From NCBI RefSeq assembly GCF_057098645.1, contig NZ_CM169472.1: a stretch of 64,000 nt of DNA. The stretch is one strand, 5' to 3'. A program made the position numbers and the translations under genes. The notes under the pieces are model-generated. The model saw only the letters and a list, made by a program, of their open reading frames with translations, was not told the DNA's origin and ran no database searches. Of the stretch, positions 43,790-52,832 are shown piece by piece; within the stretch, counting starts at the first letter, position 1; every line of letters starts with the position of its first letter.

Positions 43790-44467
43790 ATGAAGTGGGA
43801 CTGGATTTTCTTTGATGCCGATGAAACGCTGTTTACCTTTGACTCATTCACCGGCCTGCAGCGGATGTTTCTTGATTACAGCGTCAACTTTACCGCTGAA
43901 GATTTTCAGGACTATCAGGCCGTTAACAAGCCACTGTGGGTGGATTATCAAAACGGCGCGATCACTTCATTACAGCTTCAGCACGGGCGTTTCGAGAGCT
44001 GGGCCGAACGGCTGAAAGTTGAAGCAGGCTTGCTTAACGATGCCTTTATTAATGCGATGGCGGAAATCTGTACGCCGTTGCCGGGCGCGGTTTCTCTGCT
44101 TAACGCCATTCGTGGCAACGCTAAAATCGGCATCATCACCAACGGTTTTAGCGCCTTGCAGCAAGTGCGTCTGGAACGGACGGGCCTGCGTGATTACTTC
44201 GATTTGCTGGTGATTTCCGAAGAAGTTGGCGTTGCCAAACCGAATAAGAAAATTTTCGATTATGCGCTGGAACAGGCGGGCAATCCTGACCGTTCACGCG
44301 TGCTGATGGTTGGCGACACTGCCGAGTCCGATATTCTCGGTGGCATCAACGCCGGGCTTGCGACCTGCTGGCTGAATGCGCACAATCGCGAGCAACCAGA
44401 AGGCATCGCGCCCACCTGGACCGTTTCTTCGTTGCACGAACTGGAGCAGCTCCTGTGTAAACACTGA
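43790..44467 (+). CDS. yjjG: HAD-family pyrimidine 5'-nucleotidase YjjG
   Basis: 225-aa [20 protein letters not shown]… with HAD motif I DxDxT. Confidence 0.85.
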
Positions 44468-44557
44468 TTGCCTCCCCCCCGTTGATGGGTAAAATAGCCG
44501 CAATTTTTCGTTTTCAACAAGCGCGGCGCGATGCCGCTTACTCAAGAAGAAAGAATT

Positions 44558-44632
44558 ATGACGTTGTCTCCTTATTTGCAAGAGGTGGCGAAGCGCCGCA
44601 CTTTTGCCATTATTTCTCACCCCAATAATTAA
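44558..44632 (+). pseudogene. prfC: 5' remnant of peptide chain release factor 3 gene, truncated by prophage insertion
   Basis: ATG 44558 gives [22 protein letters not shown] then NN-stop; the expected continuation DAGKTT (GTPase P-loop) is missing and AT-rich phage DNA follows. Confidence 0.75.
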
Positions 44633-44779
44633 GCCCAAATTAAAGCTCTTTTACTCTTTCAAAGTCCTTTCAGTTAATTGAGTGTTAATCATATAACTCA
44701 TTTAATAACATGATGTTATGTGGTTTCTTTAATTGAAAATTCTTTCATGTAACTTTAAATCGATCAGGTTGCTTTCATC

Positions 44780-44852
44780 AAAAATCTGTACATGTGCTTG
44801 TACATAATGTACAAAACAGCAGAGGTGGTTTTTTATTTGTACAAGGTGAGTA
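44780..44852. repeat. TGTACA-containing repeats upstream of int (candidate arm-type or operator-like sites)
   Basis: tgtacatgtgcttgtacataatgtacaaaac … tttgtacaagg: four TGTACA motifs within about 60 bp. Confidence 0.35.
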
Positions 44853-46091
44853 ATGGCGCTGTCTGATGCGTGGTTGCGTTCAGTCGTTGGAAAGGAACGT
44901 GATAAGGTTTTGGTTAAATCCGATCGTGATGGTCTGTCTGTCAGAGTATCACCGAAAGGTCGCGTAGTGTTCCAATATCGTTATCAATGGGCAGGGAAAG
45001 GTGAGCGCCTTGATATCGGAACTTACCCGGCAACTGGATTAAAAGAGGCCAGAGAAGAAGTTATCCGTCTCCGTGGTGAACTCGAGTCAAACCGCAATCC
45101 ACGATTAGTCAAGCAGGCTGAAAAACGAAAAGCTACTGAAGCTATGACGGTAGAGTCTGTGATCCGTGCCTGGTATGAAGCATATTGTGTAAAAAATAAA
45201 AAAGGTTCTGAACAGATACTCCGCTCGTTTGAGCTGCACCTGTTCTCTAAAATCGGGAATATCCCTCACGATGCAGCTACATTGCATGATTGGTTAGAAG
45301 TCCTGGAGCCTCTTAGCACTAAGACTCCAGCAATAGCAGACCGATTGCTAATTAACGCAAAGCAGGCCCATGTCTGGGCGTATAAGAGAAAGCTCATTGA
45401 AACTCGCCCGCTGTCGGATATCACGGGTAAAGATATGGATATCCGTAAAGGTCAGAAGAAACGGTTTCTGACACATGATGAAATTAAAATCCTTTATGCT
45501 GCGATCGATGGTTCTCGAATGGTTCCCAAATACCGGGCCTTCATTAAACTATTGCTGCATTTCGGCTGTCGTAGTTCAGAGCTGATTACTGCCAGGGTGG
45601 ATGATTTTGATTTCATTAATAAGGTATGGACTGTACCGCCAGAACGACATAAGACAGGTGATATAACAGGCGAACCGCTAAAGCGCCCCATTATTGAACC
45701 GGTTGAAGAGCTTATAAAATACGTTATCTCTATGAACAACGGTTCCGATATGCTTTTTACCAAGGAAGGAAGCAAGGAGCCAGTTGGTCGGACATCATTG
45801 CAGTCGCTGCCTTACAATTTAATGCAGTACGCATGGCGGCGTTTGGGGTATCAATTTCCTCATTGGTCTCTTCATGATTTGAGACGAACAGCACGAACAA
45901 ACTTTTCTGATCTTACTGCGCCTCATATTGCTGAAATAATGCTCGGTCATAAACTGCCAGGGGTATGGCAAGTTTATGATAAGAGCGATTATCTAGAAGA
46001 ACAGCGTAAAGCCTATCAGGCATGGTGGGATAGGGTTGATTCGATTCTTACTTACACTAATTTAGGTTCCAACAGACAGCCTATTGAATAA
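44853..46091 (+). CDS. int: Phage tyrosine integrase (P4-type family)
   Basis: 412-aa ORF with catalytic-domain motifs (…HFGCRSSELITARVDDF…, …HDLRRTARTNFSDL…, …GHKLPGVWQVYDKSDYLEEQRK…); first gene inside the junction. Confidence 0.9.
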   Translation: MALSDAWLRSVVGKERDKVLVKSDRDGLSVRVSPKGRVVFQYRYQWAGKGERLDIGTYPATGLKEAREEVIRLRGELESNRNPRLVKQAEKRKATEAMTVESVIRAWYEAYCVKNKKGSEQILRSFELHLFSKIGNIPHDAATLHDWLEVLEPLSTKTPAIADRLLINAKQAHVWAYKRKLIETRPLSDITGKDMDIRKGQKKRFLTHDEIKILYAAIDGSRMVPKYRAFIKLLLHFGCRSSELITARVDDFDFINKVWTVPPERHKTGDITGEPLKRPIIEPVEELIKYVISMNNGSDMLFTKEGSKEPVGRTSLQSLPYNLMQYAWRRLGYQFPHWSLHDLRRTARTNFSDLTAPHIAEIMLGHKLPGVWQVYDKSDYLEEQRKAYQAWWDRVDSILTYTNLGSNRQPIE

Positions 46092-46196
46092 TGAATAGAC
46101 ATACAGAGTAAGAAAATAGTAATGATTCTTGGATTATAATTAACTGGTTGCTGATATTTTGATTTGCCGATTTATGAAGAGACGGTCATTATACTT

Positions 46197-46237
46197 ATAA
46201 AAACACCACTCCTTATCCTTACAGAAATAAGGAGTGG
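46197..46237 (-). terminator. Terminator of the cargo operon (bidirectional, between convergent int and the cargo gene)
   Basis: 11-bp stem ccactccttat / ataaggagtgg with loop ccttacagaa; on the minus strand it is followed by TTTTTATAA. Confidence 0.5.
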
Positions 46238-46243
46238 AAACAG

Positions 46244-47851
46244 TTATGGCTGAGACTCTGGTTTAGCAATCTCGTTTATAAATTTCTTAGCTACAACAGT
46301 CTCATACTTTCTATAATCATCAAGATATTGAACATCTATATGATTTTCGTAGCGAGCATTAAATTTATTTGCAGCCCCTGTTTTATCATCTTTACGTTCA
46401 TCCGTTGGTCTGAAAAATTTATGGTAGCGGCGGGGTGATACCCCCTCAAAATCACAAAATATTACTTTGGAAGATTCTTCGTTCTTTGTTATTGCATCAT
46501 TATGCAGATCAAGAGCAAGACTTTTATCAAATGGCTCTATATATACTACTTTTTTTATTCCAGCTGCGACAATATGCCTTGCACAGTTGTGGCAGGGATA
46601 GGTTGTCGTAAAAAGAATTTTATCTTTAGTATCGCCGTTTTGTTTTCTAGCCATTGATGTAATGACGTCCATTTCAGCATGAATTGATCTGGAGTACTCC
46701 ATTACACTTGATATTTTGCTGTCTTTGTAAATGCCTTCTGCAATATTATCTAATTTGTTTAGAAGTCGTGTTATATTAATATCGGCAACAGTTTGTCCTG
46801 CGGAAATACCTAATACAGTTCTTACTTCGGTTGATAATATGCTTTTTATACGGTCTTTAATTTTTAGCTTGTTTGCATCATTATAACACTTACCACTTTT
46901 GTGAACGCATCGATGATCGTTATCAAAATCATCACTGCTATACAACCCGCCACCAGCTTTAGGTACGTCGTTCTTACCCACGGCAAGCAAATTCCCTTCA
47001 TCATCAAACAGTGCAGCCCCTACTTGACGTGATAAACAAGCTGATTGTAATGATGTTGAAAAGGCAGCATACATACCTTTCTCGTTAAAAGTTGGTGTTA
47101 AACCATTTTTGCCATGAATAAGACCGAAAAACCGATCAATCTTCTTCTTTAATTCACTTTTTTGGCTGAAGTTATTTTTAATAAAAAAATCTGAATCAAG
47201 AATGGTTTCCCCGGTTCTTTGTCCATACGGATCAGAGGATTTATTATCAATATTGATAATTAAATGAAGGTCGTTCTTTGTCGATTCGTCATCAATGAGA
47301 TTCTGAATTCGGTAATCTAAATCGCGCAAAACTCCTAACAAATAGAAATTATGCTGATATATAACTCTGAATAACTCTATTTCTTCCGGCCTTTTGAATT
47401 GATCAATGATGAAGACAGTACCTTTATATTCATCATTATTATAATCATTATTATAATCAATATTATTTTTCTCTGCTGCGATTGCTGCAATAGCAGCTTC
47501 TGCAAGCAACTCATTTTTTTTGTAATGTTTACGAAGTTTATTGGCAATATCCTGGAGTTTTAAATGTCTATTAGCTTGTGTGCTTTCGGATACCTTCAGT
47601 GCTGCTGGCTCAAAATATAATGGGTTTTCCATAAGCGCACTTATGCGGATGTGTACAACATTATACCCCCATTCTTTGGATATCTCTTCGATAATTTTGT
47701 TTATCGTTCTCATGCCACATCCAACATATCCACACAATCCAAGATAAATATCTTTTGATTGTCGTGAATTCACAATCTCAAGTGATGATGCCGATGTTGA
47801 GCCTTTTTTTTCATTCAGCTTTTGTGGAGTTTTTTTTGCTGCTTCAGCCAT
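46244..47851 (-). CDS. Fusion protein: N-terminal degenerate P-loop kinase-like domain + C-terminal zinc-dependent deoxycytidylate/cytidine deaminase domain; candidate antiphage nucleotide-depletion enzyme
   Basis: 535-aa ORF. C-terminal half has the CDA-fold motifs …RQVGAALFDDEGNLLAVGKNDVP…, …SIHAEMDVITSMA… and …TYPCHNCARHIVAAGIKKVVYIEPF… (H-A-E / P-C-x-x-C). N-terminal half has a glycine-rich loop DIYLGLCGYVGCGMRT and a hydrophobic strand followed by Asp (TVFIIDQF). AT-rich; lies between int and xis. Confidence 0.6.
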   Translation of the reverse strand: MAEAAKKTPQKLNEKKGSTSASSLEIVNSRQSKDIYLGLCGYVGCGMRTINKIIEEISKEWGYNVVHIRISALMENPLYFEPAALKVSESTQANRHLKLQDIANKLRKHYKKNELLAEAAIAAIAAEKNNIDYNNDYNNDEYKGTVFIIDQFKRPEEIELFRVIYQHNFYLLGVLRDLDYRIQNLIDDESTKNDLHLIINIDNKSSDPYGQRTGETILDSDFFIKNNFSQKSELKKKIDRFFGLIHGKNGLTPTFNEKGMYAAFSTSLQSACLSRQVGAALFDDEGNLLAVGKNDVPKAGGGLYSSDDFDNDHRCVHKSGKCYNDANKLKIKDRIKSILSTEVRTVLGISAGQTVADINITRLLNKLDNIAEGIYKDSKISSVMEYSRSIHAEMDVITSMARKQNGDTKDKILFTTTYPCHNCARHIVAAGIKKVVYIEPFDKSLALDLHNDAITKNEESSKVIFCDFEGVSPRRYHKFFRPTDERKDDKTGAANKFNARYENHIDVQYLDDYRKYETVVAKKFINEIAKPESQP

Positions 47852-47861
47852 TGCTAATTAC

Positions 47862-48047
47862 CTAGTCGAAAACTATATCAGTATTTATTATTTCAAAAAA
47901 TGCATCAAGAATTTCTTTATTTTTCTTTTTACTTTCAAATGAAATGACATTATCTTGATTAAATGTTGTTAATTCAATGCAGATAGAATCAACCTGATCA
48001 TTGGCGGCGATGCTCGATTCTATTTCATTAAATGCTATTACATTCAT
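47862..48047 (-). CDS. Small acidic hypothetical protein co-oriented with and 10 nt upstream of the deaminase gene
   Basis: 61-aa ORF MNVIAFNEIESSIAANDQVDSICIELTTFNQDNVISFESKKKNKEILDAFFEIINTDIVFD with ATG start; same AT-rich composition as the downstream gene; weak Shine-Dalgarno. Confidence 0.35.
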   Translation of the reverse strand: MNVIAFNEIESSIAANDQVDSICIELTTFNQDNVISFESKKKNKEILDAFFEIINTDIVFD

Positions 48048-48391
48048 TTATCTTATCCAAACATAATAAAAAACCATATGGCCTTTAGTGTACAACAAAA
48101 CCATACTCTTTCCCCTCATTTTAGAGGGGGAAGTGTGGTCCACATCATGTTTTTTCCCACCCATGAAAATGTTCACCTAGGCTGGTGATGCATTTTATGT
48201 ACATCAACTCTTTGAGTTGAATCATTATTTTAGTATTTTTTCTATCATTGTGTAAATGTCTTCGTTTCAATACATCATGCTTGGGGAGCGGTCCCCGTTT
48301 CCTGATAATTAATGCTTGTGGATAGCAACGTCCGTGCCTGTATCGCTCAGACAGACGCTTACCGTGCCATAGACGTGTCTGTTCACATACG

Positions 48392-48586
48392 TCATTCAAT
48401 AACTCCTGCAAACCTGTAAATCTTGCGTGAAGCCCATTTATTTGGGCATGATTTAATATCAGGATCTGGAAAATCAGGCCTGTACTTCTGGCCAGTTCTC
48501 CGGTTTACGCTGTTCCAGCGAAGAACTGTCGATACTGAAACGCCACAGAAGTCGGCGACTTGTTTAGTTGTCATTAAGTTGTTCAT
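48392..48586 (-). CDS. xis: Excisionase / AlpA-family DNA-binding protein
   Basis: 64-aa ORF MNNLMTTKQVADFCGVSVSTVLRWNSVNRRTGQKYRPDFPDP… (winged-helix excisionase signature). Confidence 0.7.
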   Translation of the reverse strand: MNNLMTTKQVADFCGVSVSTVLRWNSVNRRTGQKYRPDFPDPDIKSCPNKWASRKIYRFAGVIE

Positions 48587-49206
48587 TACTTCACCTCCTG
48601 CGGCGGTTCCGGTAGCGGCATCCAGTGGGTTACTTTCGATGCCGGTTCTTCTCCATTGTCAGTAACTGCCCACCATTTGTTTCTCGAACAATCATAATAC
48701 CCTTCGAAGGTATCGCACTCAGTCCAGCCGTAAGACTTACCCCGACACCAAACATACTGTTTATCGTTCGGCATTCGCTCACTACAGCTTATCCAACCAT
48801 CCGGAGTTACCGGAGAGTTGCCCGACAGCTTGTTCAACTTGTAAGTCTGGCTTACAGGTTTGGCACCATGAAGCATGGTGGCGCGGCAGGCGTTCCAGCC
48901 TTCATCAAAACCGACTATGCCATTATTTAAAGACGGACGAGCATCTGGCACCACCAGTACTGGCTTGGCTATATATAGCGGCTGAACATACCAGCCCTTT
49001 GATAACCAACTGTCAGCAATGTTTTTGCTCCTGGTTATTGCCGGAATACCTAAGCCATTGTCTGAATGCAGCCATGCCACCGGCTCCTCTTCCAGCGATG
49101 CCAGAGCAATTTCATAAGCACGGCGCTCAATATCGTCTCGAACCTCTAGGCTGCTGATTCGTTCTTTGATTTCTTTAATCAGTTCTTTATTGGTAAATGT
49201 GGTCAT
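48586..49206 (-). CDS. Prophage early protein (DUF551 / YfdT-like)
   Basis: 206-aa ORF, Cys/Trp-rich C-terminal half (…WISCSERMPNDKQYVWCRGKSYGWTECDTFEGYYDCSRNKWW…); stop/start overlap with neighbours. Confidence 0.5.
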   Translation of the reverse strand: MTTFTNKELIKEIKERISSLEVRDDIERRAYEIALASLEEEPVAWLHSDNGLGIPAITRSKNIADSWLSKGWYVQPLYIAKPVLVVPDARPSLNNGIVGFDEGWNACRATMLHGAKPVSQTYKLNKLSGNSPVTPDGWISCSERMPNDKQYVWCRGKSYGWTECDTFEGYYDCSRNKWWAVTDNGEEPASKVTHWMPLPEPPQEVK

Positions 49207-49568
49207 TATGCTCCAGCCTCCGGCGCTTTGGGTATTACTGCCCAGTGAGTGATATTGAAGTTTTCAAGGTCCCCGACCTGAAATGTCCACTGCCATTCTC
49301 CGGTTTCTTTTTGTCCCCAGGTGTACCAGAGAGAACGCCAGCCAATCAGCCAGCCTTCTCCGTTAGCATCAAATAACAGAACACTTTCATTTGCTGGTGG
49401 CAGTTCAGCTGACACTGGTATTATTTTGTTTTCCAGTGCCGCACATTTAGCTTCAAGCGCGTCGAATTTACGTACCAGGTACTCAGCATTTGTTTCGTTC
49501 ACTTTCAGATCTCGCGGTACACATTTCCCGCGAAGAAACCCTTCCATTTCGAAAACATTCATGCGCAT
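49206..49568 (-). CDS. Prophage early protein (YfdS-like)
   Basis: 120-aa ORF in an overlapping operon arrangement. Confidence 0.5.
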   Translation of the reverse strand: MRMNVFEMEGFLRGKCVPRDLKVNETNAEYLVRKFDALEAKCAALENKIIPVSAELPPANESVLLFDANGEGWLIGWRSLWYTWGQKETGEWQWTFQVGDLENFNITHWAVIPKAPEAGA

Positions 49569-50095
49569 TTGCGTAACTCCGATAATTCGTTAAAGCGTTC
49601 CATAAACATCCCGTAGGCATGGCCTGGAGCCAGTGGAATCACGTTGATCATCTCTGTTGCCGGGATACCTTCCAGCACAGGCCAGAAAGAGCCATCATCA
49701 AGCCCGAGATCGCGGCGTTCGGTTGCCAGCATGATGAGATCGGCATATTTCACGGGTGTACTCATAACCGGGGGTAACCCGTATTTCTCACGGATTACGG
49801 CGTCTATTTTTTCTTCCATCCGTTTATAGTCAGGAAGAAGGCGTTTCAGTGGAGCCGGGATGTCCTGGCAATACGCTTCTGTTGCATCATGCATTAACGC
49901 TTCAAAAGCAAATTCCTGCGGTACCAGTTTGCTGCAAAGCACCGCATGTTGGGCGACGCTGTAGAAGTGTGAAAGATGACCGGCAAAGCGACAGATATTT
50001 GAAAGGGAAACTGCGATATCGTTAATCACGATGTCGTCTTTATTTATCCTGTCATAATAAAAATGCTTCCCGGAAAAAGTTTTAATAAATGACAT
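49559..50095 (-). CDS. HD-domain phosphohydrolase, YfbR/YfdR-like 5'-deoxynucleotidase
   Basis: ORF 49559..50122; from MSFIKT… 178 aa; HD motif context (…NICRFAGHLSHFYSVAQHAVLCS…, …HDATEAYCQDIP…). Confidence 0.7.
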   Translation of the reverse strand: MSFIKTFSGKHFYYDRINKDDIVINDIAVSLSNICRFAGHLSHFYSVAQHAVLCSKLVPQEFAFEALMHDATEAYCQDIPAPLKRLLPDYKRMEEKIDAVIREKYGLPPVMSTPVKYADLIMLATERRDLGLDDGSFWPVLEGIPATEMINVIPLAPGHAYGMFMERFNELSELRKCA

Positions 50096-50222
50096 TTTGT
50101 TCTCCACGTATATGCGCTGCACCGCGCTGAATTTTGGTTAAAGAAAACCCTCGCCATCAGGCGATTATTGAGTCAATTATGTTTCCATAAATGCCCCCGC
50201 AGGGGCATTTGCAGTAAGGAAA

Positions 50223-51047
50223 TCAGGCGGTAAAAGTACCAATAAAGGTTTCTACTTTGCTGTCTTTGAGTTTCTCAACAAGCAGATCACGAAATTCGTT
50301 AGCCATTTCTTCCTGCACTGCTTCCAGCTGAATAATGCGCAGAACCAGTACAGGACGATCGCCAGTGATAATGCTGAGGCGTAATTTAAACGGACGTTCT
50401 TGCAGGCCTTCAAACGGAACGCATTTAAATTCAAATGCCACTGGCATAATGTCTTTGGTCTTCGCTTCGACAGATTCCATCAGGGAGCGTTTGCCGCTGA
50501 AGTCATTATCTTCAAAATCAGCGGTCTGGTTTGCTTCAATCGTGATTTTACGGACTGCCGCAGCCGCTTTTGTTGCCTGAATGGCGTCACCATTAGCATC
50601 AAAGCCCACAAGGTAGTCGGCCCAGTCTTCAATCCATTCTGCCAGTGACTTCTGGGAGTTACGCTCGCCGTTAACAGACAACAGGGCAGAGAACGGTGCT
50701 GTCTTTTTCAGTTTGAGAGTGGCGGTGTTATCTGCGTGACCTGGTTCATCAATAGTACCCAGGTTAAGCACACTGACGGCACGCATATTATCAGCATCGA
50801 TAAAGCAGCGGGTGCCTTCATCTGCAAGATCTTTAGAATAACGGGTAAAATCATCGATGCTGGCAGTGGAAAGCGCGCCACGGAAACGGAAGCGATTTAA
50901 ATTAAATTTTTCCAGATCATGAATGCGGAAATTCTCAGGCAATGCCACAGCATCGGCACCAATCTTACTGATAATTTCATTAACACCCTGAGCAGAAATA
51001 AGGGCATGGATTTGATTAATTGCGGTTGCGTCTAAGTTCTGAGACAT
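50223..51047 (-). CDS. Prophage protein, YfdQ-like (DUF2303)
   Basis: 274-aa [51 protein letters not shown]…; length and position match the CPS-53 yfdQ-type gene. Confidence 0.55.
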
Positions 51048-51112
51048 AATAAGTCCTCACTATATAAAGATATTCAGTGATGAGATAAATAATCAGTTAA
51101 TTAAGAACGATA

Positions 51113-51475
51113 TTAATGACCTGCTGCGCGTAGTTTTCCGTCAGGTTCACCGGCAAGAGTCAGTAATTGTCCCTGGTCTTCCTGCAGAATAGTCAGGCGA
51201 CCACCGCGATTGACATACATCGGCGTTTCGGTGGTGTCTTCTTCGGAAATTTTCCCGCGGTTAGTCGGGCGAACATATGAGAGTTTGTGTTTGATTTTCA
51301 CACGGTTCTCATCAAATGGTTCGATTTCCAGGTTGAGTGAGACCTTACCTTTGGTTTTCGTGTTCATCACACCGGAAGCGACTTCACTGAGAACTGCGCC
51401 GATTTTGGTTTCAAATACGCCGCCGTCCAGCTCCCCGATAAATGCCTGCACATCAGTACTGCGTTCGCTAGCCAT
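51113..51475 (-). CDS. Prophage protein, YfdP-like; first gene of the early-left operon
   Basis: Likely start at ATG (MASERSTDVQAFIGELDGGVF…) preceded by AGGAG; the ORF-track start at 51706 is a TTG and the intervening translation looks non-coding. Confidence 0.5.
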   Translation of the reverse strand: MASERSTDVQAFIGELDGGVFETKIGAVLSEVASGVMNTKTKGKVSLNLEIEPFDENRVKIKHKLSYVRPTNRGKISEEDTTETPMYVNRGGRLTILQEDQGQLLTLAGEPDGKLRAAGH

Positions 51476-52075
51476 TTTGCTGCTCCTCATCATATCGACC
51501 CTGCAAGGTCGGTTGGTTTCTCCACAAAACAGAGAAGAACACCTGCGGTGGCAGCCGCCCGGATGGATTGGGTTATGAGCCCGTCGTCCGGTGATGCTCT
51601 TCTCTGTTTTGTAAAAAGAGCGGTACCAGCCGGAAGCAAGTGTACAAACTGGTACCGCCAAAGCAGTGGCTGTTGTGGTGGGCTTGTCACTCAGGCGTAT
51701 GGTCAACCTGACAATCCGGTGTCCTCAACGGGGAAAGAGTAACCCCGCCATACTTACCGCCGCGCCATTTCGCGGATTACCACAACGCTGAGAGCACTTA
51801 GCCAGTTACAGCACCACACTTTGTCGCGGCTCCATAAATGCCCTCATCGTTGCACCCTGGTCTCTTCCCAGGCGTCAAACCGAATCGCCACGCTGGTTAG
51901 GCGTCTTATCAGCATCATCATTGACTTGCACATTCCGGCTACCTGGTTTGTTTGCCCGAGCAAGGAGTGGATTGTCCCCTTTAACGTCCCCAGACCGCTA
52001 ACGACGCATGTGCCATACGCCGTGTTACAACCAAATTTTGTTTAATCTTGCCTGTGCTGTGTTTCTTTTAGATAC

Positions 52076-52104
52076 ATTATGTATCCCAAGGGTACATTGT
52101 CAAG
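52076..52104 (-). promoter_or_regulatory. Candidate pL-type early-left promoter with overlapping operator
   Basis: On the minus strand TTGACA (52099..52104), 17-nt spacer, ATAATG (52076..52081); the spacer contains a GTACC…GGaTAC operator-like half-site pair. Confidence 0.45.
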
Positions 52105-52105
52105 T

Positions 52106-52129
52106 ATAAAAAAACCTGCCGAAGCAGGT
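52106..52129 (-). terminator. Rho-independent terminator downstream of cI
   Basis: cctgccgaagcagg hairpin flanked by an A-run (U-run on the cI transcript). Confidence 0.55.
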
Positions 52130-52141
52130 TATAAATATTGA

Positions 52142-52816
52142 TTAGGCCTTTATTATGTATCTTCTTGGTTTTCCTGAGAAAATCACTGTACCAATTATAG
52201 AGCAATTACCGTTGATCTTAATGTAAGGTTCAGGCCAGTTTGGGTTTAATGCTTTGAGGTAACGCTGTGTTCCATCTTCTATCAACCGCTTGAAGGTGGT
52301 TTCGCCTGTATCGTGCATCAATGCAATAACGTCGTCACCGTGGCAGGCAGGGACTTCAGGATCAACAAAAATCATGTCTCCCGGGCGGTACTCATCAATC
52401 ATTGAATCACCAATCACCCGCAAGATATAAGTCATTTCGCCACAGGGTACAGGGCAGGGGTAAGTTTCTGCTGTGCTCAAATCAACCTCAGAATAGCCAA
52501 CTTCTTTCCATGCTCCGGCCTGTACCCATGATATGACAGGGACTAACGTTATTTGTTTGTTAGTGATTGAAACATCAGGTTTTTTTGTGATGTTCGTGGT
52601 CTGGTGTTCTTGATCAAGCCATCCGACAGGCAGGTCGAAACATTTTTCGATGTGCCGCGCCATGCTGTCACCGATATTTTTAGTAGCACCATCTCCCATA
52701 AACCTGCTGGTCTGGGTTGGCTCGCGATCAATCATGGTGGCAAAGGAAGAATTCCCGCCAACACCATCTCTCAGTTTTCTGGCGTTAGACCGCCGGATGT
52801 CATGGACTGTTTTCAT
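52142..52816 (-). CDS. cI: Prophage repressor, cI-like (N-terminal DNA-binding domain + C-terminal S24 LexA-type peptidase)
   Basis: 224-aa ORF; C-terminal …LRVIGDSMIDEYRPGDMIFVDPEVPACHGDDVIALMHDTGETTFKRL… with Ser and Lys catalytic dyad context. Confidence 0.8.
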   Translation of the reverse strand: MKTVHDIRRSNARKLRDGVGGNSSFATMIDREPTQTSRFMGDGATKNIGDSMARHIEKCFDLPVGWLDQEHQTTNITKKPDVSITNKQITLVPVISWVQAGAWKEVGYSEVDLSTAETYPCPVPCGEMTYILRVIGDSMIDEYRPGDMIFVDPEVPACHGDDVIALMHDTGETTFKRLIEDGTQRYLKALNPNWPEPYIKINGNCSIIGTVIFSGKPRRYIIKA

Positions 52817-52832
52817 AAAGAAATTAAAACCT

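Follow-up and report, generated by a model that had tools for sequence, protein, structure and literature searches.

In a 64,000-nucleotide stretch of DNA (contig NZ_CM169472.1 of RefSeq assembly GCF_057098645.1; the whole stretch is called the window below), an open reading frame (ORF) of 61 codons lies directly upstream of a gene for an anti-phage deaminase of the AvcD type, which acts on dCTP and dCMP (deoxycytidine tri- and monophosphate). We propose, with a probability of roughly 0.6, that this small ORF is the inhibitor gene, in the antitoxin position, of an AvcID-type dCTP-deaminase phage-defence module, and that it is a translated gene. This proposal departs from the published view of the equivalent element in Vibrio, where the inhibitor is described as a non-coding RNA, and the evidence for a protein is therefore laid out first.

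The small ORF and its expectation by chance

The ORF runs on the minus strand from an ATG at position 48047 to a TAG stop at 47864-47862 (186 nt), and 10 nt (47852-47861) separate this stop from the ATG of the deaminase at 47851, also on the minus strand. A preliminary description of this DNA had given the same ATG-started frame, 10 nt before the deaminase and on the same strand, and had left unsaid which strand that is. Its statements on composition hold as well: the ORF has a GC content of 27%, and the product, MNVIAFNEIESSIAANDQVDSICIELTTFNQDNVISFESKKKNKEILDAFFEIINTDIVFD, is strongly acidic, with 12 Asp or Glu residues for 4 Lys or Arg and an isoelectric point of 4.06. Three features of the protein recur below, namely D-N-V-I-S-F at residues 32-37, a basic patch S-K-K-K-N-K at residues 39-44, and the end I-V-F-D-stop. 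The sequence preceding the ATG, TTTGGATAAGATAA, forms at best a duplex of -3.1 kcal/mol with the anti-Shine-Dalgarno sequence, which makes for a weak Shine-Dalgarno site.

Could such a frame arise by chance in AT-rich DNA, as the preliminary description had allowed? The 379-nt leader plus ORF was shuffled 5000 times with its dinucleotide composition kept: on the same strand, 2.9% of the shuffles held an ATG-initiated ORF of 61 codons or more, and 1.5% held one that had 55 codons or more and stopped no further than 60 nt from the deaminase start. The frame is thus mildly unlikely from composition only. The lone sequence being indecisive on this question, a comparison with other loci was required.

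Coding selection among close relatives

A protein search returned 29 relatives of the small protein, 75-98% identical to it and nearly all exactly 61 residues long, from the genera Serratia, Budvicia, Yersinia, Klebsiella, Proteus, Salmonella, Morganella, Enterobacter and Cronobacter. Within this clade, 13 loci were compared at the DNA level. The deaminase follows the small ORF by 10 nt in 13 of 13, and the flanking genes are unrelated: a P4-like primase island, neighbours such as GmrSD, BamHI and EcoRII, a ParM plasmid region, the P2 genes ogr and psu, and various integrases. The constancy of the pair amid unrelated flanks shows that the two genes move as a unit.

Not a single indel affects the small ORF in the 13 loci, so that the frame, on whose integrity in close relatives the preliminary description had made the gene depend, is nowhere disrupted. 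Variable sites fall at codon positions 1, 2 and 3 in the numbers 18, 13 and 27. The ratio of non-synonymous to synonymous substitution rates (dN/dS) is 0.28 when the ORF is read in its own frame, and 0.63 and 0.74 when it is read in the two others; that of the deaminase is 0.09. Codon turnover is well illustrated by Leu47, for which five synonymous codons (CTT, CTG, CTA, CTC and TTG) are used in the clade. The small ORF is under purifying selection at the protein level.

In family libraries, the small protein matches phrog_9966, a family of unknown function, with an E-value of 1.9e-43; this is its only match in PHROGs, and scans of PADLOC, NCBIfam and Pfam gave none. A tblastn search of the INPHARED phages with the small protein returned zero matches. 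The RefSeq annotation of the ORF is inconsistent, as a comparison of NZ_CP062901.1 with NZ_CP013663.1 shows: PGAP calls it hypothetical protein WP_040091656.1 in some genomes, and leaves it unannotated in others whose small ORF differs by one residue (N7D).

A family of small proteins beside the deaminase

Each of five divergent deaminase loci of Escherichia coli is directly preceded by an ORF of 60-62 codons; these loci are carried by a prophage, plasmid p58 of the enterotoxigenic strain (ETEC) H10407, a 4.6-kb plasmid, an integrative and conjugative element (ICE) and a 69-kb plasmid. Scanning one genome per species with a deaminase alignment added 80 further loci. A same-strand ORF of 53-80 codons, ending 8-85 nt upstream of the deaminase, was present in most gammaproteobacterial loci, in several betaproteobacterial ones and in one Acidobacteria metagenome-assembled genome.

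Twenty-seven of these upstream ORFs end in K-A-[LI]-x-x-[IVL]-[LIV]-x-x-A-x-K-L-x-W-stop. Counting back from the stop, Trp occupies position -1 in all 27 (TGG 27), Leu position -3 in 17 (CTA 6, TTG 5, CTT 4, TTA 2), and Ala position -6 in 23 (GCA 9, GCT 8, GCC 4, GCG 2) and position -14 in 20 (GCT 7, GCA 6, GCC 5, GCG 2); the stop codon is TAA in 20, TAG in 6 and TGA in 1. The amino acids are thus kept and the codons are not. We then took 41 ORFs ending in Trp and measured the mean pairwise nucleotide identity over the last 19 codons before it. At the first codon position it is 0.375 (0.28 expected from composition), at the second 0.519 (0.31) and at the third 0.293 (0.28). As the third position is at composition level and the first two are above it, the third is saturated and the others are constrained. 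In the same set, the BLOSUM62 score averaged over sites is +1.34 in frame, and every other frame gives -0.3 to -0.7.

Translation signals point the same way. Shine-Dalgarno-like sites of -4 kcal/mol or better precede 62% of the family ORFs; for random ATGs the figure is 23% (Mann-Whitney p 2.4e-11). The small ORF of H10407 is preceded by TAGGAG. The preliminary description was thus right about a weak Shine-Dalgarno site as far as the window's clade is concerned, and not for the family at large, in which such sites are enriched.

A profile search of 1.84 billion representative proteins retrieved 60 clusters at E <= 1e-3, all of 39-104 residues and all with the family motifs. Among hits that had not been found by way of the deaminase, two lay on evaluable contigs, and both adjoin a deaminase homologue, at 67 nt on its downstream side in one case and at 33 nt on its upstream side in the other; the contig of a third was too short to judge its neighbourhood. 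Three motifs characterise the family: N-V-[VI]-x-F in the centre (in its broader form [DSN]-N-V-[VI]-x-[FL]), then a stretch rich in Lys and Arg, and at the C-terminus a helix that closes with A-x-x-L-x-W-stop. The window protein fits this definition by D-N-V-I-S-F-E-S-K-K-K-N-K followed by a predicted helix at residues 44-55, with a terminal F-D in place of W.

The homology of the window's clade to the Trp-ending family is the weaker link, and is suggested by position, size, the shared motif and a modest profile match. A downstream form of the gene (locus L076, with N-N-V-I-S-F ... I-I-V-D-stop) looks intermediate by eye, its score not being significant.

Gene order relative to the deaminase

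A hidden Markov model (HMM) was built from the 27 upstream ORFs only, and searched against the 11,000 stop-to-stop ORFs of all loci and the window. At E < 0.5 it hit 17 same-strand ORFs that directly follow the deaminase in loci devoid of an upstream ORF; the best was L048 (8.5e-8), followed by L056, L078, L051, L068, L029, L039, L026 and others. Besides these, the training set and the window's clade, none of the 11,000 ORFs was hit at this threshold.

With an HMM of the full family, a related ORF of 40-80 codons adjoins the deaminase, on the same strand, in 65 of the 84 deaminase loci, upstream in 36 and downstream in 29, a count that is partly circular because the model includes those sequences; none of the other ~8,100 ORFs was hit. 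This was the synteny check called for in the preliminary description, and it disposes of the idea of a chance frame in AT-rich DNA: frame, length and amino-acid motifs are kept beside deaminase homologues across many phyla.

The downstream genes share the central motif, in the form [SN]-N-V-[VI]-x-[FL], and the same C-terminal helix, and have an additional N-terminal Q-L-S-L-D-F. A move to the 3' side of the enzyme with the peptide motif kept is not expected of a cis-acting leader or of a pure RNA. The downstream members (L026, L028, L029, L031, L032, L035, L046, L048, L051, L067, L080 and others) belong to Beta- and Deltaproteobacteria, Bacteroidota and candidate phyla. Q-L-S-L-D-F occurs neither in the window's clade nor in most gammaproteobacterial upstream versions, and the Bacteroidota versions end in ...N-T-K-S-F, not in ...L-x-W.

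Links to experimentally tested elements

In Vibrio cholerae, the deaminase DcdV/AvcD is inhibited post-translationally by an element located directly 5' of it (Hsueh et al., bioRxiv 10.1101/2021.03.31.437871; final version in Nat Microbiol 2022). The element was first seen as an ORF of 222 nt and then narrowed to one of 174 nt, or 57 codons; removal of 18 bp at its 5' end or of 4 bp at its 3' end abolished activity (bioRxiv 10.1101/2021.03.31.437871). Such elements inhibit their cognate enzyme in trans, with cognate specificity for those of ETEC and Proteus mirabilis, and have the same orientation as the deaminase, with which they are co-transcribed; deaminase without the small gene is active and toxic in E. 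coli; and according to the authors there is no amino-acid or nucleotide similarity among the four small ORFs (bioRxiv 10.1101/2021.03.31.437871).

The window deaminase is 60% identical to the experimentally studied enzyme of ETEC H10407. BLASTP between the window ORF and the H10407 ORF is not significant (E 0.79). An end-anchored ungapped alignment of the last 30 residues gives a score of 48 with H10407, where shuffles give -21 +/- 13, and of 57 with Dickeya. Nucleotide identity at codon positions 2, 1 and 3 is 0.73, 0.50 and 0.43 with H10407, and 0.67, 0.63 and 0.30 with Dickeya. Judging from these alignments, the window ORF is homologous to those of H10407 and Dickeya over the last 30 residues.

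A word-indexed protein search found no V. cholerae member of the family, and we used instead the avcI primers of Vibrio parahaemolyticus (table of PMC10511110). The 5' primer, ATGGTTACAAATTTAAATG, reads M-V-T-N-L-N (ATG GTT ACA...), and the 3' primer, which is the reverse complement of TTACCAACGAATTTTCTG, gives CAG AAA ATT CGT TGG TAA, or Q-K-I-R-W-stop. As the primer ends coincide with the ends of an ORF, the validated V. parahaemolyticus 'RNA' was delimited exactly as that ORF, which ends in the Trp of the family.

The preliminary description had suggested a partner, inhibitor or chaperone. The choice of inhibitor agrees with these experiments, carried out at the same position in homologous loci; the non-coding status that the literature gives to the element there is contradicted by the synteny.

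The leader and signs of RNA function

Upstream of the ATG, ~130-180 nt are as conserved as the ORF itself, with 82-88% identity among clade members from -120 to -1. The leader contains G+C hairpins, CCCCCTCTAAAATGAGGGG and CCATATGG, and comparison with the H10407 and Dickeya leaders revealed no conservation. Among its possible roles are those of a regulator binding site, of a segment of the functional RNA and of a stability element. A 42-codon GTG-initiated ORF in the leader (48048-48176, minus strand), which ends at the ATG of the small ORF (TAAATG), is probably not a gene, because in every relative its frame is broken by a 1-nt indel within a T run.

RNAalifold found no covariation support in the clade alignment (covariation term -0.07, 2 of 90 pairs compensatory), a null result that is not decisive because the diversity of this alignment is too low. 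The fold z-score is -0.39 for the ORF alone, no better than shuffles, and -1.97 for leader plus ORF. Covariation and fold z-scores neither support nor exclude an RNA activity of the transcript. No tandem repeats are present in 47862-48300, the sole weak array being inside the deaminase gene. An Rfam scan of 44000-50000 at E <= 1 returned only a spurious microRNA match within the integrase gene; this 'mir-3204' match at 45934-45994 is sub-threshold (23 bits for a gathering score of 90) and certainly not a microRNA. The match was produced by a perfect 14-bp inverted repeat on the minus strand, TCATAAACTTGCCA ... TGGCAGTTTATGA, within the 3' end of the integrase gene.

Structure predictions

With the family alignment, AlphaFold2 predicts a mostly disordered small protein with a single, amphipathic helix at residues 44-55 (predicted local distance difference test, pLDDT, 72-75). 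We also modelled a fusion of deaminase, linker and small protein with a paired alignment of 27 rows: the enzyme folds (predicted template modelling score 0.67) and the peptide helix has a pLDDT of 72-74. As the fusion adds no confidence to the helix, and contacts and predicted aligned error were not visible, no interface is claimed.

Deaminase, operon layout and genomic setting

The coordinates of the module are collected in Table 1. The deaminase combines an N-terminal P-loop kinase-like domain with a C-terminal zinc deaminase domain. It matches the PADLOC dCTPase model PDLC02373 over residues 10-533 (E 1.9e-164), and RefSeq names the product 'anti-phage dCTP deaminase'. The motifs H391-A392-E393 and P419-C420-H421..C423 are invariant in two deaminase alignments. 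In the PDB, dCMP deaminases match residues 382-446, in the C-terminal domain; the sequence search retrieved generic dCMP deaminases only, with no AvcD or AvcD-AvcI structure in the copy searched.

Table 1. Features of the small ORF-deaminase module in the window
Feature	Coordinates	Strand	Evidence
Intrinsic-terminator-like hairpin, 13-bp stem then T run	46206..46237	-	7 nt past deaminase stop
AvcD-type anti-phage dCTP/dCMP deaminase, 535 aa	46244..47851	-	PADLOC, RefSeq name, motifs, PDB matches
Spacer GTAATTAGCA, 10 nt, small-ORF stop to deaminase ATG	47852..47861	-	constant in 13/13 clade loci
Small ORF, 61 aa, acidic, avcI/difV position	47862..48047	-	relatives, dN/dS, phrog_9966 match
5' leader, kept within the enterobacterial clade, short G+C hairpins	48048..48226	-	alignment
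Promoter-like site TTTACA-18 nt-TAAAAT, 10/12 consensus matches	48227..48256	-	consensus match only

The promoter-like site lies ~180-210 nt 5' of the small-ORF ATG; the aligned region of Budvicia reads TTTGCA...TAGAAT, and sequence conservation among clade members climbs from about -240 nt. Between the small ORF and the deaminase a terminator scan found nothing, and 10 nt leave no room for one. The strong hairpin beyond the deaminase is predicted to mark the end of a two-gene operon. A weak Shine-Dalgarno-like AGGT overlaps the stop codon of the small ORF (anti-Shine-Dalgarno duplex for the deaminase start, -3.7 kcal/mol), and this overlap makes translational coupling from the small ORF to the deaminase possible.

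The window is 100% identical to E. coli NZ_CP062901.1, and the allele is present at >=95% identity in 48 of 5426 complete E. coli genomes. The module sits at the integrase-proximal end of a CPS-53/KpLE1-like prophage, beside yjjG. A P4-type tyrosine integrase (44853-46091, plus strand) adjoins it, and the prophage genes yfdP, yfdQ and yfdR, a DUF551 gene and a cI-like repressor occupy 48392-53000. In other genera, the same two-gene module has P4-like satellites, P2-like prophages, ICEs or small mobilisable plasmids as its carriers, or lies in defence islands beside GmrSD, BamHI and EcoRII genes.

Codons 5-8 of the deaminase form a homopolymer of eight A (47830-47837, minus strand). In a Shiga-toxin-type E. 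coli lineage (L100, L101 and L102), A7 replaces A8 and the deaminase is frameshifted (MAEAAKKLHKS*). Slippage in the A8 run may switch the enzyme on and off, or A7 may simply mark decaying alleles. The A7 genomes also have one or both of two insertion sequences (IS), namely IS1A, situated 48-55 nt before the ATG of the small ORF, and IS421, within the 3' part of the deaminase gene; the small ORF itself is intact in them. We considered these IS-disrupted alleles as a natural experiment; with their deaminase already out of frame, they carry no information.

A working model and its alternatives

The proposed inhibitor gene would operate as follows. A single upstream promoter (near 48256) would drive transcription of the leader, the 61-codon gene and, 10 nt on, the deaminase, up to the terminator at 46206. 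In the absence of infection, the product of the small gene would hold the deaminase inactive. This inhibitor, being labile, would cease to be renewed once a phage shuts down transcription in the host, and the freed deaminase would convert dCTP and dCMP into dUTP and dUMP (the deoxyuridine counterparts), starving phage DNA synthesis. The encoded peptide would take part in inhibition, most plausibly by binding of its C-terminal amphipathic helix to the deaminase. It may act together with its own mRNA, perhaps through the basic patch, with N-V-I-S-F as a central beta-strand-like segment. From the comparative signals, translation of the window ORF is predicted and most likely takes place.

Several observations weigh against this proposal. 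Some come from the window and its relatives: the Shine-Dalgarno site is weak in the clade; the profile of the '...I-V-F-D' clade aligns to that of the '...L-x-W' family with an hhalign E-value of 3.1e-4 but a probability of 39%; the synonymous rate (pS) of the small ORF, 0.226, is lower than the 0.322 of the deaminase, which leaves room for an extra constraint at the RNA level; and in the AlphaFold2 fusion there is no sign of docking, the helix being predicted with no higher confidence than in the peptide alone. Others come from Vibrio. Start-to-stop-codon mutants of the V. cholerae element, and a construct lacking the ribosome-binding site (RBS), still inhibited the deaminase (bioRxiv 10.1101/2021.03.31.437871), which led the authors to name the element a small RNA (DifV/AvcI). 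The labile avcI transcript of ~280 nt is lost after rifampicin treatment or phage infection and not after spectinomycin; rifampicin activates AvcD, and spectinomycin, an inhibitor of translation, does not; and AvcI RNA is reported to form a complex with AvcD in vitro (PMC10511110). Reviews through September 2025 still list AvcI as a non-coding RNA. Substitutions in AvcD that render it insensitive to AvcI (E123K, A126T, K201R, K511E and Q514R) have also been reported.

The question arises as to how selection on a protein can be reconciled with these data. Given the protein-level selection found here and the labile RNA inhibitor of the literature, the simplest reconciliation is that avcI is a dual-function gene, coding and acting as RNA, rather than a purely non-coding RNA, with the peptide's mechanism as conjectured above. 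A more specific version holds that the avcI transcript is the mRNA of a conserved microprotein of ~60 residues that is essential to the inhibitor, either as a protein antitoxin or as one half of an RNA-peptide complex; we would give it even odds. Four other explanations are considered.

In the first, a protein antitoxin of the type II kind would block the deaminase by itself, inhibition by RNA being an artefact of overexpression or peculiar to Vibrio. All the coding evidence and the occurrence of both gene orders suit this explanation, as do the fast divergence of the small partner beside a slowly evolving enzyme, the cognate specificity of inhibition, and the prediction of a disordered protein with a C-terminal helix. 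The loss of activity of difV upon a 4-bp deletion at its 3' end would also be accounted for: if the V. cholerae ORF ends in TGG-stop, that deletion would take away the stop codon together with the final G of TGG. The Vibrio data, however, are at odds with a labile peptide that inhibits on its own: the ATG-to-TAA and RBS-less constructs were still active, activation follows rifampicin and not spectinomycin, and RNA binding was reported in vitro. The small protein, moreover, has no DNA-binding or other Pfam domain that could be found, and no docking signal from AlphaFold2. We consider this explanation unlikely.

The published model, in which the element is only an untranslated small RNA, an antitoxin similar to type III, and the frame has no protein function, draws its strength from the Vibrio mutants, the drug responses and the in vitro complex just described, to which the weak Shine-Dalgarno site of the window and the somewhat lowered pS of the ORF may be added. 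Yet it does not predict that third codon positions are random in identity while the first and second are conserved, that Ala and Leu are encoded by all their synonymous codons, or that Trp-stop closes 27 of 27 upstream ORFs; nor does it predict a dN/dS of 0.28 in one frame only, the enrichment in Shine-Dalgarno sites, or peptide motifs relocated 3' of the enzyme. On the RNA side, neither covariation, nor the fold of the ORF (z -0.39), nor an Rfam family, nor ToxI-like tandem repeats come to its help. An RNA-only explanation with a functionless ORF is hard to sustain, and we hold it to be improbable.

Equally improbable in our eyes is a real protein that is not the inhibitor, and which would sense the phage trigger, aid the loading or release of the RNA, or serve as an activator or chaperone. 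Overexpressed RNA alone inhibits, so that selection on the peptide calls for some other explanation, and the basic patch (S-K-K-K-N-K here, rich in Lys and Arg in most members) could bind RNA; the authors of the Vibrio study, in addition, failed to purify active enzyme and suspected a missing cofactor. Against such a role, E. coli cells given the deaminase gene and not the small one already show the activity and toxicity of the enzyme; the observations made here fit this role and inhibition alike.

Finally, a cis-acting upstream ORF, whose translation would only couple ribosomes to the deaminase start or stabilise the transcript, the peptide itself being irrelevant, would agree with the constant 10-nt spacer and with the weak deaminase Shine-Dalgarno site overlapping the small-ORF stop, but it leaves the conserved amino-acid motifs unexplained and cannot hold for loci with the small gene on the downstream side or with spacers of up to 85 nt, so that we tend to discard it.

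Significance and comparison with known systems

How the deaminase is silenced and released is the central question for the widespread AvcD anti-phage systems. A conserved partner protein affects the choice of components for purification and structure determination, and the reading of start-codon and truncation mutants. It also bears on classification (type II, type III or dual-function) and on annotation, as PGAP omits the small gene in many genomes. If the microprotein proves essential, AvcID, classed for four years as a system with a non-coding RNA antitoxin, would need reclassifying, and the dCTP-deaminase systems now taken for 'single-gene' would have two genes each, in Proteobacteria, Bacteroidota, Acidobacteriota and others. 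The small ORF flagged in the window by the preliminary description is not noise and is most likely the cognate control gene of the deaminase. The literature and family libraries searched contain neither a protein-coding inhibitor family, nor its three motifs, nor the permuted gene order, and a literature search for a dual-function antitoxin of the avcI kind found none.

The module is a member of the known AvcID/dCTP-deaminase kind. Like AvcID, it has a toxin made of a P-loop kinase-like domain and a zinc deaminase domain (HAE ... PCxxC), with a small element directly 5' on the same strand and no terminator in between. Where AvcID has an element of ~170-220 nt in the same orientation within a single operon, the window has a 186-nt ORF and a 10-nt gap in a predicted operon; in codons, the element counts 61 in the window and in H10407, and 57 (174 nt) in V. 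cholerae. Unlike AvcID as published, in which the inhibitor gene is non-coding and its reading frame free of selection, the ORFs form a three-motif protein family under coding selection, as dN/dS, codon turnover, Shine-Dalgarno enrichment and gene-order permutation attest, and the gene may sit 3' of the deaminase. The window's clade ends in I-V-F-D and not in ...L-x-W, and inhibition by its product is proposed by analogy with the H10407 homologue. The 'dCTP deaminase' defence system (Tal et al., Nat Microbiol 2022; PADLOC/DefenseFinder) is matched through the same deaminase model; PADLOC and DefenseFinder list it as one gene, and the small partner is not in their models.

With type III toxin-antitoxin systems (ToxIN, CptIN, TenpIN), the likeness lies in the AvcI of the literature, which is labile, depends on transcription, acts post-translationally on the toxin protein and is released from it by phage transcription shut-off. 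In contrast to these systems, the module has no tandem RNA repeats and no Rfam match, its toxin is a deaminase instead of an endoribonuclease, and its inhibitor locus is under coding selection. Type II systems are resembled in that a small, fast-evolving and, by prediction, largely disordered protein stands beside a toxic enzyme with cognate specificity, and in that it does so in either order (36 loci upstream, 29 downstream); unlike them, the protein has no DNA-binding domain recognisable in Pfam or NCBIfam, and the published labile species is RNA.

Regulatory RNAs that also encode a small protein are exemplified by SgrS/SgrT and by RNAIII/delta-haemolysin, in which the RNA base-pairs with mRNAs. 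The avcI gene, as we propose to read it, would share with small RNAs of the SgrS/SgrT type the principle of one transcript serving both as RNA and as message for a protein, and would differ from them in that AvcI RNA is reported to bind the enzyme.

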